From a virus (taxonomy: Duplodnaviria; Heunggongvirae; Uroviricota; Caudoviricetes): DNA of 49,778 nucleotides. Below the pieces are notes generated by a model. The model had not been told where the DNA came from. It ran no database searches and saw only the letters and a program-made list of their open reading frames with translations. Both the position numbers and the translations under genes were made by a program. Positions 1,422 through 29,937 of the stretch are shown here, one piece after another (the stretch's first letter is position 1; the number at the start of each line of letters is the position of its first letter). Where the stretch lies: the IMG/VR virus record IMGVR_UViG_2579778554_000010; one strand, written 5' to 3'.

Positions 1422-3893
1422 TTAAAAATCAGCCTGATTCGGGATCAGTTTTTGCCAGATAACTGAAACGTATTTTGCCTGGTAACGGGCGTCATCAAGT
1501 GCATTATGGCGCTCACCTTCGAATGGAATAGCCGTTCTGGCATCGAAGTCTATGGCTTTCCCCAGCTCAACGATTGTGCGTACATCGCGATCGTTGTAGT
1601 AACGCCACGGGCAGGGGATCCCCTGCCGTTCGTATGAACGGCGCAAAATCGTGTTGTCGAAGTTGGCTCCATTTCCCCAGACCTGAACAAAAAATTCACC
1701 GGAGTTTTCGTCGATAAATTCCCGCAATTGTAACAGTGCATCATCTAACGGGATTTCATCGGTCATAATGGCAGATTGCGCTTCGCGTGATTGCTTAAGC
1801 CACCATTTAATGGTGTCCCGATCAATGACCCCGCCAGCAGTTTCCAGATCGATAGTCTTACTAAATTCCGGTCCCATATCTCCGGTTTGCGGATCGAAAA
1901 ATATTGCACCTATTGAGATGATCGGGGCATCAGGATTTTTTCCCATGGTTTCAAGGTCGATCATTAGATGGTCACACGTCCTGCTGGTGGATGTGATTTC
2001 TTGATGACCGTTCACCTTAATTGAGTGATCTGCCGTCTCGCCAGTTTCATTATCGCTATCGTGATGCTGATTGCCGCCAGTGTTCTCCTTGTGTGGATGT
2101 TCAGCGCCTTCCATTTCCTCCGGATCATCTTCCTGAACTTCAACCTGATACTCTTCATCGAATGTTTCCTGGTATGTTGCGTCGCCCATCACCGCGCCAC
2201 AATCAGGGCAGTTGCCGCCGCCGGTCTGACCGCAGGCGGTGCAGACTTTTTCCACTTCCTGTTGCGCCACTGGTTCAGGCTGTTTCGTTTCTGGCTCGTT
2301 TTGTAACGCATTTGGGCTGTTTTGTTCCGCTTTCTGGCCGTTCTGTTCCGTTTCTTGCTGGTTCTGATTCACTGAATCGCGGGTTTCAATCCCCTTCACC
2401 CATTTCGGATCATTCGGGTCGCTAATCCCTGCAACAAATTCACCACGTGATACAGCAAGCAACTTATTGGCGTCAGGCTGGCTGATATTGGCTGCCTGCA
2501 TAATTTTGTTTACTTCGTCAGCGGTAACTTTTACCGGCTCTGGTTGTGCGATCGTGTCAGATGCACCAGTATTTTGTTGTGAACCAGAGTACGTGCCGTT
2601 TTTACGTGCGAAGTATTCCTCTTTTGTGATTTCCGTAGCTCCCAGGGCCAGTGCTTTTTCCAGACCAGAAAGTTTGTTTGCGCGACCGTATTTTTCGCCG
2701 TCCTTATCGGTGAAAAGGAAGTAGAACGGTCCCTCACGCTCTACAGATGGTTCGTCTTCCACTTCGCATTCGGTTTTTTCGTTGTCCGGCATTGCCGTTT
2801 CCACTGCATCAGTTTCTGGTACTGGCGACGAGAGAGTATCAGTTGCGCTCTGATTTCTTCCTTCATCTTCAAACACGCCCTTTGTAGTCAGGTATTCAGT
2901 AATGTATTTGTTCAGTGCCACAGGGTCTTTGTGAATGTCGATCGGACGTTCACGGACAAGGCCAAAAATAGTCTGGCGGTCGTAGCGAAGGGCATCAGGC
3001 TGTTTGCGCATTGATGCCGAGATACGCTTCCAGTCTTCGCGGTCGTTGTCGATAACTTCATTTTTTGCCCAGCGATGGATGCTGCCGTCAATGTTTCCGG
3101 CATCCACATCACCAGGCCAGAGAGCGTAGGCCAGTTCGTCATCCAGTGTTTTCCATGTCTGCTTGTATTCGCGATGAATGGCAGCAATGACCGGGCTGAT
3201 TTTTCCTGTTGAATTTTCACTGTGCTGTTGATTGGTTCTGGCGCGGGCGAGATCAACAACAGACGTGTATTTTCCGGTTTCCTTGCGTTCACCTTCGCGA
3301 CGTTTTTTCCAGATGCGCATCTCTGCCTGAATTTCGGGCCATTTGGCACCAGGCTTACATTTATGCTTAACCCACCCGATGGCATGCAGCTTAAGCTCCG
3401 GATACATGGCGTTAACTTCTGGCATTTTCATCAACGCTTCAACGATATGTCCGTCGAATGTTGCCATGTCTTCCTGCAACAATTCCTGTGCGCTAATAAC
3501 CATATCAACGGTGATGTTTTCACATGTGTCGAACTTAACCATGACAGCGTTCTGTACTTCAGGGGCCAACTTGTCAAAAGTGACGTTCATCGGATCTGAT
3601 TCAGTCTCAACCGGGACAAAGGAAGCAGACTCCTCATCCCAGCGGTTTTCCTGCATATATTCAGCATCCCAGGAATCGAGGGCAGGGCGGGGTATGCCGG
3701 GTTTATCCTCACAGACAATAAATTTATAAGCGCAGTCCTGAGCAGCCGGATAATGTTCCAGGAATTGCCAGTGAAATTTTGCGCGGGCGCGACGTTCATC
3801 ACCGGCTTCAATGGCAGTGGCTACAGCGACTGCACCTTCTTCCTTTATTGCCTGTTCGTCCGGAATGGCGGCGCAAATAAAGACTTTACTCAT
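1422..3893 (-). CDS. Phage exonuclease, 823 aa, with C-terminal DEDDh-type 3'-5' exonuclease domain (full-length counterpart of the truncated Qin ydfE)
   Basis: C-terminal motifs MIDLETMG ... WGNGANFD ... HNALDDA typical of DnaQ-like exonucleases; acidic central region; sits in the early-left operon next to xis. Confidence 0.7.
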   Translation of the reverse strand: MSKVFICAAIPDEQAIKEEGAVAVATAIEAGDERRARAKFHWQFLEHYPAAQDCAYKFIVCEDKPGIPRPALDSWDAEYMQENRWDEESASFVPVETESDPMNVTFDKLAPEVQNAVMVKFDTCENITVDMVISAQELLQEDMATFDGHIVEALMKMPEVNAMYPELKLHAIGWVKHKCKPGAKWPEIQAEMRIWKKRREGERKETGKYTSVVDLARARTNQQHSENSTGKISPVIAAIHREYKQTWKTLDDELAYALWPGDVDAGNIDGSIHRWAKNEVIDNDREDWKRISASMRKQPDALRYDRQTIFGLVRERPIDIHKDPVALNKYITEYLTTKGVFEDEGRNQSATDTLSSPVPETDAVETAMPDNEKTECEVEDEPSVEREGPFYFLFTDKDGEKYGRANKLSGLEKALALGATEITKEEYFARKNGTYSGSQQNTGASDTIAQPEPVKVTADEVNKIMQAANISQPDANKLLAVSRGEFVAGISDPNDPKWVKGIETRDSVNQNQQETEQNGQKAEQNSPNALQNEPETKQPEPVAQQEVEKVCTACGQTGGGNCPDCGAVMGDATYQETFDEEYQVEVQEDDPEEMEGAEHPHKENTGGNQHHDSDNETGETADHSIKVNGHQEITSTSRTCDHLMIDLETMGKNPDAPIISIGAIFFDPQTGDMGPEFSKTIDLETAGGVIDRDTIKWWLKQSREAQSAIMTDEIPLDDALLQLREFIDENSGEFFVQVWGNGANFDNTILRRSYERQGIPCPWRYYNDRDVRTIVELGKAIDFDARTAIPFEGERHNALDDARYQAKYVSVIWQKLIPNQADF

Positions 3894-3985
3894 TTTGTTT
3901 TACCTCATTACAGATTTAAGGGTGAACAAATCCCTGCCATTGCTGGCATATAAGAATGAAACCGGATATTTATTACGGAACTGTT

Positions 3986-4177
3986 TTAAAGACCTGCCGG
4001 GATTTCGTTATTATCCTGGTGAATAACTTTATCGACCGGGTAACAGTTACCGGGAATTTTCTGTTCGGTTGCTGCAGTCACACACTCCTGCATTGTCCTG
4101 TGAACACTGACTGCAATATCAACTGGCTCTCCGGAAACAAGAAAAACTGTCAGAACAAGTGCAAATGCTGTATTCAT
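3986..4177 (-). CDS. ydfD: YdfD-like small protein with N-terminal hydrophobic segment (Qin YdfD is a reported lysis-inducing protein)
   Basis: 63-aa ORF MNTAFALVLTVFLVSG...; its ATG overlaps the dicB stop in an ATGA arrangement; same size and position as ydfD after dicB in Qin. Confidence 0.55.
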   Translation of the reverse strand: MNTAFALVLTVFLVSGEPVDIAVSVHRTMQECVTAATEQKIPGNCYPVDKVIHQDNNEIPAGL

Positions 4178-4362
4178 TGTGCACATCCTTTTTGTATCGG
4201 ACGTAAACGGGCCAGCATTGAAAGAATGCATATTTTATTTAATAACTCCCGTTCGTGTTTTCTCTTGTTAATGGCATCTTCAGTAAATACAGGGTTACTG
4301 ATAGTGACACCAATTTCAAAACAACCTTCAGACGTATTAACGTTTGGTAATAACGTTTCCAT
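4174..4362 (-). CDS. dicB: Cell division inhibitor DicB
   Basis: 62-aa product METLLPNVNTSEGCFEIGVTISNPVFTEDAINKRKHERELLNKICILSMLARLRPIQKGCAQ, near-identical to my recollection of E. coli K-12 DicB; start codon at 4362-4360. Confidence 0.85.
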   Translation of the reverse strand: METLLPNVNTSEGCFEIGVTISNPVFTEDAINKRKHERELLNKICILSMLARLRPIQKGCAQ

Positions 4363-4532
4363 TATCGCGTCCTCAACAATGAATTTTGTGATGCGGTGCC
4401 TGGTGCCTCCAGGTGACGTTAACCAGTTAACAATTAACGCCGGATACAGAGAATCCACCCATAACACTGTTTTTGGTTTTAACTGTTCCGCGTGCGCTCA
4501 GCCGCATTCACCACATCACAAAATTCACTTTA

Positions 4533-25391: not shown

Positions 25392-26282
25392 ATGAAGAAA
25401 AAATACGAACTGGTTGTTAAAGGGATAAATAATTACCCGGATAAGATTACTGTTACTGTGGCACTGGAAGTTGGTGGGTATCCGTCACTGTTGTTGCCAG
25501 ATGTGGCGATTAGTCTTGACCGTACTGAAGGTGCCACGCTGGAGTTTTACGAAGCTGAGGCGAAAAAGCAGGCGAAGCAGTTTTTCATGGATGTTGCTGC
25601 CGGGTTATGTGAATGGAACGAACCGTTGCCGGAAAAGCGCCCCGTAATTTTAGAGGCGCAGGATGTGTTGATAACCTACAAAGGAAAGCTACCGGGAAGA
25701 ATTACTTGTTCTCTGAAGATGCCGCCGTCAACACTGCGGTCAGAAAAAGATGATGTTGAATCACGTATTGAAAAACTGGAGAGCTACGTCGTTGAGCTGA
25801 ATAAGAAATGGTCGATATTGGTGCCTTCTGGCGATGAAAAGCAGTTTGCTGCGTTTGACGATTATTGTCGGAAAGTGATGAGCAGAAATCTCGCAGAGTG
25901 TTTCAGTATTCATAATGATAATTTCAGTGACCCGGAATGGGAGTGTAACCGGCCATCCTTTGTTGTATCCGGTGATGCTGGGAAAATAACCATCTCAGAA
26001 AATGGGAAAGTAACACCTCCATCGCACCAGCACAGTGAGGAGCTCATTGAATTTGCCATTGATTACCTGAAGAACAATAAAAAGCAGGGGCTGATGAAGC
26101 GCGTTGGCCGTTGCATGGGATATCTTCAGGTAGCCGCTGAGATTGAAGCGCTGGCCAGTGGTGCTGATAAGGATGCAATTGTGCGGGAGGCTCTTCTTCG
26201 TGATTTTAATACTCCACCCTTTAAAAAAGTGCCGGCTTACTGGCTTCATCCGGGGCTGACTTATCTTAAAGTGCGTATTTAG
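25392..26282 (+). CDS. Hypothetical protein, 296 aa, inserted between holin and endolysin
   Basis: Long clean ORF, lower GC than its neighbours, starts 5 nt after the holin stop; no recognisable motif. Confidence 0.6.
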   Translation: MKKKYELVVKGINNYPDKITVTVALEVGGYPSLLLPDVAISLDRTEGATLEFYEAEAKKQAKQFFMDVAAGLCEWNEPLPEKRPVILEAQDVLITYKGKLPGRITCSLKMPPSTLRSEKDDVESRIEKLESYVVELNKKWSILVPSGDEKQFAAFDDYCRKVMSRNLAECFSIHNDNFSDPEWECNRPSFVVSGDAGKITISENGKVTPPSHQHSEELIEFAIDYLKNNKKQGLMKRVGRCMGYLQVAAEIEALASGADKDAIVREALLRDFNTPPFKKVPAYWLHPGLTYLKVRI

Positions 26283-26318
26283 TGGGCCAGGGACAGCGGC
26301 TGAATATTTAATATATCC

Positions 26319-26852
26319 ATGAACACCAAAATCAAATACGGCCTGTCGGCTGCCGTTCTGGCGCTGATTGCCGCTGGTGCGCCTGCGCCTGACATTCTCG
26401 ACCAGTTTCTGGATGAAAAGGAAGGCAACCACACCACGGCATACCGTGATGGTGCAGGTATCTGGACCATCTGCCGTGGTGCCATCATGGTGGATGGCAA
26501 ACCTGTCGTTCCGGGCATGAAGTTGTCGAAGGAAAAATGCGACCAGGTTAACGCCATTGAGCGTGATAAAGCGCTGGCGTGGGTGGAGAAAAACATCAGA
26601 GTGCCGCTGACCGAACCCCAGAAAGCGGGGATCGCGTCATTCTGTCCGTACAACATTGGTCCCGGTAAGTGTTTCCCGTCGACGTTTTACAGACGAATTA
26701 ATGCTGGTGATCGAAAAGGTGCCTGCGAAGCGATTCGCTGGTGGATTAAGGACGGTGGCAGAGACTGCCGTATTCGTTCAAACAACTGTTACGGTCAGGT
26801 ATCCCGTCGTGACCAGGAGAGCGCGCTGGCGTGCTGGGGTATCGACAGATAA
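26319..26852 (+). CDS. R: SAR-endolysin (lysozyme, R21-like)
   Basis: N-terminal signal-anchor-release segment (LSAAVLALIAAGA) and lysozyme-like body similar to phage 21 R. Confidence 0.8.
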   Translation: MNTKIKYGLSAAVLALIAAGAPAPDILDQFLDEKEGNHTTAYRDGAGIWTICRGAIMVDGKPVVPGMKLSKEKCDQVNAIERDKALAWVEKNIRVPLTEPQKAGIASFCPYNIGPGKCFPSTFYRRINAGDRKGACEAIRWWIKDGGRDCRIRSNNCYGQVSRRDQESALACWGIDR

Positions 26853-27008
26853 GCAGAATATTTTGCTGAAAAATGAGGAATGGCCACGCGGGCGGATAAC
26901 ACGAAATCCTGCGAACTGGCGAAACGTAAGTGAATAAAAGTAAAAACCCCGTTTGTTGGCACCAAGCGAGGTTTTGTGTTTCTGACCTTGAGTAAGGCAA
27001 GGGAGAAC

Positions 27009-27191
27009 ATGGCGAAGTGTAAACGAATTCTGTTGAGGTTGACTATGAAAAATGGCCTTGAACTGAAAGCGCCTGTAACTGATGACATCAGCAGAGCACT
27101 GGCTTTTGCCATTAAGTGGGTGGCGGTCGGTGTTGCTGTGTCCCCGATGCTGTATGGGCTGGCAAAACTGGTCATTGCGTTGAAATCGTGA
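27009..27191 (+). CDS. Small membrane protein, 60 aa
   Basis: ATG with AAGGCAAGGGAG RBS; C-terminal hydrophobic helix. Confidence 0.35.
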
Positions 27192-27333
27192 AGGGAGGAT
27201 TAAGCATGTCAGACAAACTCATAACGCTGGCGAAGATCCTCTGTGTAATTGTCGGCATTTCATTTTCACTAATGCTGGTTGCTCTTTTTCTTTCCATGGC
27301 CTGGATGATGTTGTCTTCGTCGGGGTTGCTGGG

Positions 27334-27807
27334 GTGAACATAAACCGAATGCTTTCCGCGTTTATCGTTATTCTGCTGGTGGCCTGTGGTGCGCTGTGGA
27401 TGGCAACAGACCATTACCGTGATAACGCGATTACCTACAAAGCGCAGCGCGATAACAAAGCCAGTGAACTGAAGCTGGCGAACGCAACCATTACTGATAT
27501 GCAGGTGCGCCAGCGCGATGTTGCTGCGCTCGATGCAAAATACTCGAGGGAATTAGCCGATGCGAGAGCTGAAAATGAAACTCTTCGCGCTGACGTTGCC
27601 GCTGGTCGTAAGCGCCTGCGGATCAACGCCACCTGTCCAGGCTCCGTGCGTGAAGCCCCCACCACCTCCGGCGTGGATAATGCAACCGGCCCCCAACTGG
27701 CAGACACCGTTACACGGGATTATTTCACCCTCAGAGAGCGGCTGATGACGATGCACAAGCAACTGGAAGGGGCACAGGACTATATCCGCACTCAGTGCCT
27801 GAAATAA
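27334..27807 (+). CDS. Rz: Spanin inner-membrane subunit Rz
   Basis: Strong similarity to lambda Rz ([15 protein letters not shown]...[18 protein letters not shown]). Confidence 0.9.
27575..27745 (+). CDS. Rz1: Spanin outer-membrane lipoprotein Rz1 (embedded in Rz, +1 frame)
   Basis: [15 protein letters not shown] lipobox followed by a proline-rich segment, nested in Rz as in lambda. Confidence 0.8.
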
Positions 27808-28117
27808 GTTTTGTTGATGCGCCGTATCGTCGCTATATTCCCTCATTAACAGAGACCGCAGCCCGACAGGGAGACTCCTCTGCGCGAGTGTGCGGGGATA
27901 ATTAAAAACGATGCACACCGGGTTTTTACCGCGTTAATGATTCGCGGGTTTATCCCGGTGCGATGGTGGAAGAAACAGGAAGCTGTATTACAGAAAGTGC
28001 TACTACTGTATCCCGATGCGATGTATGTAATGTGAGTCAGATAATGGCACAGGATGTGGTGATGTGGCAGTCTGGAACACAGGATATATTGTCAGAATAA
28101 GACCCGTAGGAATAAAA

Positions 28118-28444
28118 ATGAAAAGACGCCTTTTACTACTTTTTCTGTTATCTGTCCTGGCAGTGGGATGCTCGCAGCAAAAAGCTGATGAGCCCCGGCA
28201 ATTAGTGACGGTGTATCCACGATATCCGGAATATGCTGCAGCAAATTATATCAAGGGGCTGGTTGAGGTTAAGTTCGATATTGGTGCTGATGGGACTGTG
28301 ACACGGATCGTTTTTCTCCGCTCAGAGCCTCATAATTTGTTTCGTGATGAAGTGGTGAAGGCCATGGCGAAATGGCGATTTGAAAAGAATCGCCCCTGTC
28401 AGGGAGTGAAGAGACAATTTATCTTTACGCCGTCACGTCCTTGA
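28118..28444 (+). CDS. Lipoprotein with TonB C-terminal-domain-like fold, 108 aa
   Basis: Signal peptide plus lipobox (LSVLAVGCSQQ), then YPRYPEYAAANYIKGLVEVKFDIGADGTVTRIVFLRSEPHNLFRDEVVKAMAKWRF, which fits the TonB_C pattern. Confidence 0.55.
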   Translation: MKRRLLLLFLLSVLAVGCSQQKADEPRQLVTVYPRYPEYAAANYIKGLVEVKFDIGADGTVTRIVFLRSEPHNLFRDEVVKAMAKWRFEKNRPCQGVKRQFIFTPSRP

Positions 28445-28807
28445 TGCTTCCAGGTAGAGAGGGGCTGGACGCAGGAGAAAAATGAAAGAGCCAGCGGTTA
28501 TATTTTTGTCATGGCTGACGAGGAATGATGGAAGAAGGCGTTGTATGCCACACAACGCCTCACTGTTCATTTCTTCTTTTTCTCTGGTGGAACCCGATGA
28601 ATAAGAGTTGCACTGGTTTCCGATGAGATGGCGATATACTCGGGCAAAGTATGCTGGCAGTTTTCCAACTGGTCAAAAATACCTGCTCTCGTCTGTTGCA
28701 ATGCCTGCAGCATGCGGCGGCAATGCGCCTTGCTTTTACTAACCATCTTTCCTTCCTCTATCAGTCGCTGCGTGAACTCATCATGTAATACCAGGTAAAT
28801 GCGGATG

Positions 28808-29059
28808 TTATCGGTTTTGGCTACGCAGCATAGTACAAAACGGACAGGTGCATCCCGGGACGGGGGAGGCGTCACATGTCCCTGTGATGGTTGTTCCGGG
28901 TAATGCACTGTGTGGGGCATAAAAATGTCCGATAATTTTACTTTCTACCGCAGTTAGTTGATTCGTTGGTCCTGGTAGCACATTGGGCGAGGATTTAAAT
29001 GCCAGGCAACTGAAGGATGATGTTGCAAGGGAGATAGCGAGAATATTTCTGATTTTCAT
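28808..29059 (-). CDS. Possible small secreted Cys-rich protein, 83 aa, in the lambda bor position
   Basis: ATG with AGAGG RBS; N-terminal signal-like segment MKIRNILAISLATSSFSCLAF; a second ORF overlaps it in another frame, so the call is uncertain. Confidence 0.3.
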   Translation of the reverse strand: MKIRNILAISLATSSFSCLAFKSSPNVLPGPTNQLTAVESKIIGHFYAPHSALPGTTITGTCDASPVPGCTCPFCTMLRSQNR

Positions 29060-29207
29060 TTGATGATGCCTCTGTGTGAAATGACGGTAAACGACGCACT
29101 TGTGCCGGCACATAATAGCAAGCACCATAATAGATCAGATTCGATTCTTGCTGTAAGTGATAATTATTCTCGTTTTCGGGTCCTTTCCGTCGATCCAACA
29201 GGTTACG

Positions 29208-29219
29208 GGGCGGCGACCT
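29208..29219 (+). other. cosN cohesive-end site (lambda-type 12-nt overhang GGGCGGCGACCT)
   Basis: GGGCGGCGACCTCGCGGGTTTTCGCTATTTATGAAAATTTT matches the lambda left-end sequence; lies about 170 bp upstream of Nu1. Confidence 0.85.
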
Positions 29220-29388
29220 CGCGGGTTTTCGCTATTTATGAAAATTTTTAGGGAAAAATCAGATCCGTTTTTCTTCTTTTTAACTGATTGATTATCAATA
29301 GAATTTTAAAAATATAAAAGGATCTAACAAAGGCTGTTTTTGTTAGAAAACGCCATTTTCAGATCCTTTCTGGTTCCCGGGGGAGTGT

Positions 29389-29937
29389 ATGAACGTCAAT
29401 AAGAAAAAACTGGCCGATATTTTTGGCGTTGATGTCAGGACCATCACCGCCTGGCAGAGTCAGGGGTTACCACTAGTTTCTGGTGGAGGGAAAGGGACTG
29501 AATCAGTTTTTGATACAACTGCTGCCATTCAGTGGTATGCGCAGAGGGAAGCTGATATTAAAAACGAAAAACTCCGTAAAGAGATCGAGGATTTGAGGGC
29601 TGCCAGCGAATCAGACCTTCAGCCCGGCACCATTGATTACGAACGTTACCGACTGACGAAGGCACAGGCCGATGCACAGGAGCTGAAAAATGCTCGTGAG
29701 GAAGGCCTTGTCCTCGAGACGGAGTTATTTACCTACATCTTTCAGCGAGTGGCACAGAATATATCAGGGATCCTTGTCCGTGTCCCTCAGACACTGCAGC
29801 GTAAATACCCTGATATATCACCCGTACATCTTGATGCTGTGAAAACTGAAATCGCGAAAGCATCCGATGTGGCTTCTGAAGCCGGTGAGAATGTGCGCAG
29901 GTGGATTGATGATTTCAGACGAACTGAGGGCGGCTAA
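29389..29937 (+). CDS. nu1: Terminase small subunit
   Basis: [28 protein letters not shown]... strongly resembles lambda Nu1. Confidence 0.95.

Follow-up and report, generated by a model that had tools for sequence, protein, structure and literature searches.

An open reading frame (ORF) of 296 codons lies between the holin gene (S) and the signal-arrest-release (SAR) endolysin gene (R) of a Caudoviricetes virus, IMG/VR record IMGVR_UViG_2579778554_000010, whose DNA stretch of 49,778 nucleotides is called the window here. The ORF occupies positions 25392-26282 on the + strand, starts with ATG, ends with TAG and forms an intact frame of 891 nucleotides. Our analysis leaves little doubt that it is an intact accessory gene of the YdfR family in its long form, made together with the lysis genes as a soluble cytoplasmic protein. 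A first-pass annotation, made from the sequence alone, had described it as an unknown inserted gene without a recognisable motif. This description is wrong, since residues 1-100 strongly match the Pfam family DUF1327/YdfR (PF07041; score 150.6 bits, gathering cut-off 25; E 1.4e-44; profile positions 1-88 of 93).

A long-form YdfR protein in the lysis cassette

The complete protein (residues 1-296) aligns with the complete profile of PHROG 1085 (1-296 of 296, E 6.1e-190). This family, like all ten PHROG matches of the ORF, is listed under "unknown function" and none of them under "lysis". An identical protein named "YdfR family protein" is present in NCBI nr on 14 contigs, and at the DNA level the ORF shows 100% identity to a gene in a prophage of E. 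coli SCU-204. Part or all of the ORF is matched in about half of the complete E. coli genomes (2,703 of 5,426); in 496 of them the match extends over at least 80% of its length. Both the family and this exact protein are already catalogued and do not represent a new kind of element. The chance that 296 sense codons stay open is approximately (61/64)^296 = 7e-7 per start position; that the ORF is a real coding gene is settled by homology (hundreds of homologues) and by selection, with a ratio of non-synonymous to synonymous substitutions (dN/dS) below 1. The first-pass annotation had named widespread homologues with a characterised function as the finding that would speak against its reading: homologues are indeed widespread, and one with a characterised function was not found.

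The type member of the family is YdfR of E. coli K-12 (b1555, UniProt P76160), encoded in the cryptic prophage Qin. It occupies the same slot, with the order essQ holin, ydfR, rrrQ lysozyme and rzpQ/rzoQ, and the gap between essQ and ydfR is likewise 4 nt. The heads of the two proteins are homologous, residues 1-76 of the window protein being 47% identical to residues 1-74 of K-12 YdfR. The K-12 protein consists of the head only (103 amino acids), whereas the window protein adds a linker, a coiled coil and a conserved C-terminal domain (C-domain) of 110 amino acids. The window protein is therefore not of the single-domain type of about 100 amino acids that K-12 YdfR stands for: neither K-12 YdfR nor the 114 amino acid form found in Shiga toxin (Stx) phages contains anything that corresponds to residues 113-296. 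The order holin, ydfR, lysozyme is also found in mEp460, Evi and PhiR42_1, and the long architecture is shared by further family members, among them P0016, P0023 and P0040. Two long relatives from Stx phages, orf5/gp05 of the Stx2-converting phage 86 (268 amino acids) and BCI50300.1 of the Stx2a phage Stx2_95 (329 amino acids), share the head, the slot and the C-domain, the latter with 82-94% identity. They differ in the middle, where the Stx2_95 protein carries an insert of 33 amino acids and the coiled-coil block of the phage 86 protein is replaced; in addition, phage 86 has a convergent small ORF downstream, which is absent in the window.

The neighbours of the ORF are clearly assigned. Upstream lies an S21-type class II (pin)holin gene (25172-25387, + strand; 71 amino acids counted from MYQMEK), which matches Pfam Phage_holin_2_1 with E 9e-33 as well as PHROG holin families. 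Its sequence contains the dual start M1/M4 (MYQMEK) that is typical of phage 21 S. The TAA stop codon of the holin gene (25385-25387) is followed by a spacer of 4 nt, AGCG, and then by the ATG of the ORF. At the other end, the TAG of the ORF and a spacer of 36 nt (26280-26318, + strand) precede the gene for an R21-like SAR endolysin (lysozyme; 26319-26852, + strand; 177 amino acids; Pfam Phage_lysozyme, E 2.4e-24; PHROG endolysin), the N-terminus of which proved upon inspection to be rich in Ala and Gly, as is typical of SAR endolysins. Rz (27334-27807) and Rz1 (27560-27745) are located 3′ of the endolysin gene, after small ORFs.

The position between holin and SAR endolysin had been read correctly at the outset, and the measured gaps are 4 nt and 36 nt. 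The same is true for the lower GC content: the ORF has a GC content of 0.459 and a GC content at third codon positions (GC3) of 0.461, compared with 0.546 and 0.681 for the holin gene and 0.545 and 0.601 for the endolysin gene. The ORF is compositionally foreign relative to its neighbours. The protein as a whole is mildly acidic; a signal peptide-like N-terminus was not seen and no transmembrane segment was found in the 296 amino acids (maximum Kyte-Doolittle value of a 19-residue window: 1.16), in line with what had been noted before.

The last codons of the holin gene, GCG CGG GGA GAG TAA, contain the Shine-Dalgarno-like sequence GGGGAGAG (25377-25384), 8-15 nt upstream of the ATG of the ORF. 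Together with the holin stop codon and the 4-nt spacer it forms a coupling junction (25377-25391, + strand). The GGGGAGAG junction with a spacer of 3-4 nt is conserved in 10 loci, including loci whose heads are only approximately 47% identical and a headless variant. A sigma-70-like promoter was not found on the + strand in window positions 20500-29500, and a scan of the window revealed no strong terminator between S and R. The gene for the antiterminator Q (PF03589) lies at 18056-18877. Since the junction is conserved and neither a promoter for the ORF nor a strong terminator in front of or behind it within the S-R interval was detected, the ORF appears to be translationally coupled to the holin gene, and the protein is probably made from the Q-dependent late transcript, alongside the lysis proteins. 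The expression from the late operon in lytic growth that the first-pass annotation had assumed is thus a reasonable inference. Between the DUF826 gene and the dual start of the holin gene (MYQM) a 13-bp stem-loop followed by a T-rich run was seen (25105-25134). It may serve as a read-through terminator, or as an RNA structure with an influence on which holin start codon is used.

The spacer upstream of the endolysin gene ends with ATATCC and lacks a Shine-Dalgarno sequence. It is identical in the related loci L001 and L018 and is exactly 36 nt long in 70 of 83 loci that encode the C-domain. The conserved ATATCC precedes the endolysin ATG (window 26283-26321) in every variant examined, whatever fills the slot upstream. 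The conserved ATATCC and the missing Shine-Dalgarno sequence suggest that translation initiation of the SAR endolysin is unusual or coupled.

In RefSeq, the annotation pipeline PGAP treats the gene as a pseudogene with a "missing C-terminus" in at least three complete genomes (SCU-204, 23AR0762 and RIVM_C037166), where only the first 336 nt (112 codons) are annotated (locus L009, 9001-9336, corresponding to window 25392-25727; loci L016 and L017, 1501-1836). The 891-nt frame is open in all three genomes and 184 C-terminal codons remain unannotated there. Because the frame is open, the pseudogene call is likely an artefact of the comparison with the short family members of 103-114 amino acids. 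As the C-domain is not annotated in these genomes, the long form of the YdfR family is under-counted. In the literature and databases searched we found no description of the long architecture with its orphan C-domain, of two modules that alternate, fuse and split within a single slot, or of the Salmonella branch described below. DUF1327 is mentioned in the literature found only in passing, apart from the study on K-12 YdfR and RNase E discussed below, and the comparative papers found on lysis cassettes of Stx phages do not discuss the gene between S and R.

Domain architecture, distribution and mosaicism

The architecture was derived from an alignment of E. coli homologues and from two AlphaFold2 runs. 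The models reached moderate confidence only, with a mean predicted local distance difference test score (pLDDT) of 51.8 with 27 sequences and of 62.5 with 59 sequences including those from Salmonella. Module 1 is the DUF1327/YdfR head (residues 1-76, 25392-25619, + strand; PF07041). It is predicted to consist of three beta-strands and a long helix (pLDDT 63-87) and has an isoelectric point (pI) of 5.0. The following linker (residues 77-117, 25620-25742, + strand) is basic and predicted to be disordered (pLDDT 25-35); the common short form of 114 amino acids ends within this linker, at the equivalent of residue 112. Module 2 (residues 118-172, 25743-25907, + strand) is predicted to form a coiled-coil-like helical hairpin with helices 120-146 and 149-170 (pLDDT 53-60). 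Alignments show that it is the most variable part of the protein and that the inserts and alternative blocks of other alleles are located here.

Module 3 is the conserved C-domain (residues 189-296, 25956-26279, + strand; pI 9.1), modelled as three short strands and four helices with a pLDDT of 71-91 up to residue 270. In the window protein it contains the motifs H-x-H (212/214), GRCMGYLQVAAEIE, NTPPFK and W..PG..YLK.RI-COOH; the family-wide versions are H-x-H, GRCMGxLQxAAEIE, (D/N)xPPFK and the tail W..PG..YLK.RI, which is kept to the last residue. Nine residues, H214, G239, G243, L245, Q246, A249, I251, P276 and K278, are invariant across 59 sequences.

Remote-homology and structure searches, as the first-pass annotation had proposed, yielded the DUF1327 head and PHROG 1085; for the C-domain no match in Pfam, the PDB or viral structures emerged. 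A scan of the whole protein against NCBIfam gave nothing significant, and Pfam nothing beyond DUF1327. When 22 C-domain sequences were scanned against Pfam, only scattered matches with E >0.005 were obtained. Profiles of the head and the C-domain had no credible match among all PDB sequences; the best profile match, a PhoU homologue (E 0.016; domain E-value 4.1), and a 26-residue match to the "pathogenicity island protein" 8tch (E 0.24) were both judged to be due to chance. Foldseek against viral models returned nothing at E ≤0.001. The predicted topology made us consider the beta-beta-beta-alpha folds of HicB-like proteins, double-stranded RNA-binding domains and RNase H-like proteins, and neither profile nor structural similarity to them rose above noise. 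A relationship to HicB was rejected (head and C-domain profiles compared with a HicB by hhalign: probability <1%), as was an internal duplication of head and C-domain (hhalign probability 0.2%). Judged from the models, the C-domain may represent a new fold.

How often the slot is occupied was determined with 369 phage records that share the holin/endolysin cassette, from which an evenly spaced sample of 60 was inspected. In approximately 37 of these (about 60%), S is directly followed by R, as in VT2-Sakai with a span of about 850 nt. The first-pass annotation had stated this adjacency for the prototype cassettes, and for many phages it is correct. Approximately 12 records (about 20%) contain a short gene in the slot and a few contain a long one. 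The slot is thus optional in related phages and occupied in K-12 Qin; it is the canonical location of the YdfR family in the late operon, without being obligatory. The facultative occupation and the foreign composition support the earlier proposal of an accessory gene in the late operon. Since most phages with the same holin and endolysin have an empty slot, the gene is not needed for lysis.

Among 50,697 phage records searched with tblastn, the head was found in 100 and the C-domain in only five (four phages). The commonest phage form is the short one of 114 amino acids (e.g., in Stx2_EH2201), which runs colinearly along residues 1-112 with 92% identity and ends there. A phmmer search with residues 118-296 against 1.84 billion cluster representatives gave only 25 matches. 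A profile search identified 537 proteins, and every match with a source name comes from Escherichia, Shigella or Salmonella. In a scan that relied on a single short peptide pattern, only three of 185,579 species-representative genomes gave a match.

Distant relatives are "hypothetical proteins" of Salmonella enterica prophages (e.g., P0157, P0163 and P0182), which are 225-338 amino acids long and share head, coiled coil and C-domain at 27-45% identity, including the invariant C-domain residues. Their genes (loci L010-L015; positions 3501-4403, 3501-4385 and 3501-4238) are located in the promoter-proximal part of the late operon near holin, lysozyme and Rz. They differ from the window gene in that they lie upstream of the holin gene, in the order Q, hicAB toxin-antitoxin pair, gene, holin, and not between S and R. 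Their heads are too divergent to match PF07041 and some of the proteins have extra C-terminal tails. A relative with 28% identity also adjoins an S21-type holin cassette. The family members have in common the promoter-proximal late operon beside a pinholin/lysozyme cassette; a location at the S-R junction is not shared by all of them.

The slot of the E. coli phages and prophages can be filled with a head-only protein (103-114 amino acids), a C-domain protein (185 amino acids), a fused protein (296, 329 or 330 amino acids) or a split pair (213 and 75 amino acids). We surveyed 83 loci that encode the C-domain. The fused form was found in approximately 31 of them, and approximately 36 encode the headless form of 185 amino acids, which comprises the coiled coil plus the C-domain and whose start lies 3 nt past the holin gene (L024, L029 and about 34 other IMG/VR loci; alternative fillings of the slot are also found in L005-L008, 4001-4897). 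Most loci are intact, and approximately 13 (about 15%) are visibly truncated or frameshifted. Other prophages have a split and permuted arrangement: holin, a 213 amino acid C-module protein, a 75 amino acid DUF1327 protein and lysozyme. Head and C-domain are separable and freely recombining units that occur alone, fused or split, with every one of these forms in this same slot. This alternation in one slot is a hint of the Rosetta-stone type that the two act in one process. The middle regions of the Salmonella proteins are shuffled short modules, and they are as mosaic as the E. coli family.

Recombination is also visible in the divergence of single modules: compared with L018, the synonymous divergence (dS) is 1.88 in the head and approximately 0 in the C-domain. 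The dN/dS ratio lies between 0.16 and 0.37 in the C-domain, between 0.22 and 0.6 in the head and between 0.4 and 0.9 in the middle region. Both domains are maintained by purifying selection and the middle is relaxed or diversifying.

Many relatives carry small convergent ORFs (67-104 amino acids, - strand) directly downstream of the YdfR-family gene (L002, 3585-3899; L003, 3352-3612; L005, 4902-5189; L022, 2244-2540; L010, 4349-4645), and the window has none. The convergent ORFs of PhiR5_1 and Salmonella share a short similar stretch, and the others are mostly unrelated. A conserved partner gene was rejected, as these ORFs are mutually dissimilar, have no Pfam match and are absent from the window.

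Possible functions of the long YdfR proteins

Experimental data are available for the K-12 protein. A bacterial two-hybrid screen identified YdfR (Gopel et al., RNA Biol 2026, PMC13232886); residues 1-72 were sufficient for a signal, and the full-length fusion gave a signal with Rne 1-597. Strep-tagged YdfR co-purified FLAG-tagged Rne 1-598 together with abundant nucleic acid that was DNase-resistant (PMC13232886). On this basis we tentatively prefer the possibility that the 296 amino acid protein is a bivalent cytoplasmic adaptor that alters RNA decay in late lytic growth. Following the report on K-12 YdfR, the head would dock on the catalytic N-terminal half of the host RNase E, on RNA or on both. 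Oligomerisation would be brought about by the coiled coil, and the basic C-domain would bind a second ligand. The long late transcript might, for instance, be protected or the turnover of host mRNA sped up, and the adaptor would be dispensable for lysis itself. Among the explanations considered here, an adaptor for RNase E and RNA is the only one with experimental support, which by analogy with K-12 YdfR is weak and indirect.

Several observations weigh against such an adaptor. The RNase E data were obtained with the head-only protein of K-12 and come from two-hybrid and co-purification experiments only. Over-expression of K-12 YdfR changed few transcripts, and according to the authors the RNA may have derived from a contaminant (PMC13232886). 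The head is acidic, which is atypical of an RNA binder, and the C-domain has no link to RNA or RNase E. Searches of NCBIfam, Pfam and PDB profiles revealed no structural or profile similarity to known RNase E modulators. Any benefit is conditional, because the gene is missing from about 60% of the phages with the same cassette and about 15% of the C-domain loci are broken. Finally, the family is linked to pinholin/SAR-endolysin cassettes even at 28% identity, which fits a role related to lysis at least as well.

Such a role could be that of a cytoplasmic factor that binds the basic tail of the holin or the SAR endolysin before its release and thereby tunes membrane depolarisation and the timing of lysis. 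It would resemble RIII of phage T4, which is a cytoplasmic antiholin, without being homologous to it. The position of the gene argues for this explanation: in Escherichia it is always located within 3-4 nt of an S21-type holin gene, and in Salmonella and the 28% identical relative it lies within approximately 1 kb upstream of a cassette with a Phage_holin_2_1/Phage_holin_2_3 holin, lysozyme and Rz. Head and coiled coil are acidic, and the holin tail is strongly basic (pI 10.3). In addition, the Keio mutant of ydfR is among the leaky mutants of an envelope screen with chlorophenol red-beta-D-galactopyranoside (CPRG; PMC3879167, supplement), but the leakiness might stem from polarity of the resistance cassette on rrrQ, the lysozyme gene that lies downstream. 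The explanation is somewhat doubtful, as lysis does not require the gene (the slot is empty in the majority of phages with this holin and endolysin), the Salmonella gene precedes the holin gene instead of separating S and R, and a homology to a lysis-category family was not found in PHROG.

The mosaicism of the gene allows a different explanation, namely that it is a moron in a recombination hotspot that encodes a protein for superinfection exclusion, abortive infection or anti-defence and diversifies in an arms race. Pronounced mosaicism with shuffled modules in E. coli as well as in Salmonella, a dN/dS of up to 0.9 in the relaxed or diversifying middle region, the GC-poor foreign composition, the facultative presence and the narrow host range (Escherichia, Shigella and Salmonella) are consistent with it, as is the location of the Salmonella homologues next to hicAB toxin-antitoxin morons. 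However, the defence models of PADLOC-DB 2.0 gave no significant match; the best one, PbeC (E 0.018, 11.3 bits), covers only the coiled coil (residues 119-182), and no catalytic or effector-like domain was found in NCBIfam, Pfam, PDB profiles or viral models searched with Foldseek. Expression in the lysogen, moreover, is doubtful because a promoter of its own was not detected, and ydfR is almost silent in K-12, with nearly no reads under standard growth (PMC13232886), which also speaks against it. We consider a conflict function unlikely.

That the ORF is a functionless, decaying passenger wedged between two selected lysis genes is distinctly improbable. The truncated and frameshifted C-domain loci, the predominance of the 114 amino acid truncation in phages, the retention of the C-domain in only five of the phage records and the pseudogene call by PGAP would fit decay. 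Against this, the frame is intact in the window and in most surveyed loci, the pseudogene call is likely an artefact, and the low dN/dS of the C-domain, residues that are invariant across Escherichia and Salmonella at approximately 30% overall identity and the conserved coupling junction with the holin gene all argue for a selected product.

Returning to the adaptor for RNase E and RNA, it can be extended to a broader and rather improbable proposal: the long YdfR proteins might form a new class of cytoplasmic regulators of pinholin/SAR-endolysin phages. The head would act on RNase E or RNA and the C-domain on a second target of host or phage, so that the stability of late mRNA or the timing of lysis is coupled to host physiology. 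The shuffling of the middle module would then reflect an arms race, and the C-domain would be a new fold family confined to Escherichia and Salmonella prophages. Lysis cassettes with some form of the gene are present in the prophages of about half of the complete E. coli genomes, including many Stx phages, and our searches connected neither domain with an established function or fold. If the head modulates RNase E, it would be an example of a temperate lambdoid phage that targets the catalytic half of the main enzyme of mRNA decay. If lysis timing is tuned, there would be consequences for the release of toxin by Stx phages, in which the same cassette is found.

Late-region context and comparison with known systems

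Three tRNA genes (anticodons CAT, TCG-Arg and TCT-Arg) are located downstream of Q in the cluster region 20551-21566; they are followed by an ORF with a TerB domain (20974-21405) and a DUF3927 ORF (21402-21566). This region sits where the stx genes lie in Stx phages of the same architecture, and a toxin gene was not seen in the stretch examined (20800-22540). A transfer of the positions of "iraM" and tRNA genes from E. coli SCU-204 was dropped, as the mapping holds for the ORF (100%) and fails upstream of the esterase gene. A direct duplication of approximately 484 bp was found at 21602-21834 and 22085-22321 (blocks of 88 nt with 80%, 31 nt with 100% and 28 nt with 93% identity). Each copy ends with the same terminator-like hairpin, AGCCCCTCTCCGGAGGGGCT, followed by a T-run; the copies are non-coding and lie upstream of the gene for a NanS-p-like esterase. 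A small ORF (28064-28444) that encodes a TonB C-terminal domain (PF03544, E 1e-12) follows closely after Rz/Rz1, at the location of bor in lambda; it is also present in several related loci (L008 and L018-L020). Of the 11.5-kb late region (18000-29500), at most 79% is found in one place in any complete E. coli genome of the collection, and each segment is common. The prophage is a new mosaic of familiar modules.

The window gene can be compared with the late-operon morons of lambdoid phages (bor, lom, stx, nanS-p, and ant between R and Rz). Like them, it is an optional and compositionally distinct passenger in or beside the lysis cassette. The morons, which encode among others a lipoprotein, a toxin, an esterase and an antirepressor, differ in having known products and, in several cases, promoters of their own, whereas the window gene has neither a known activity nor a detectable promoter. 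For the proposed action of the YdfR head, Srd of phage T4 and RapZ of E. coli are functional analogues only; no sequence or fold similarity between them and YdfR was detected. T4 Srd stimulates RNase E through its N-terminal half. RapZ is an adaptor for the N-terminal domain of the enzyme (PMC13232886). Both proteins redirect RNA decay by binding to the catalytic half of the enzyme, which is the activity suggested here for the YdfR head.

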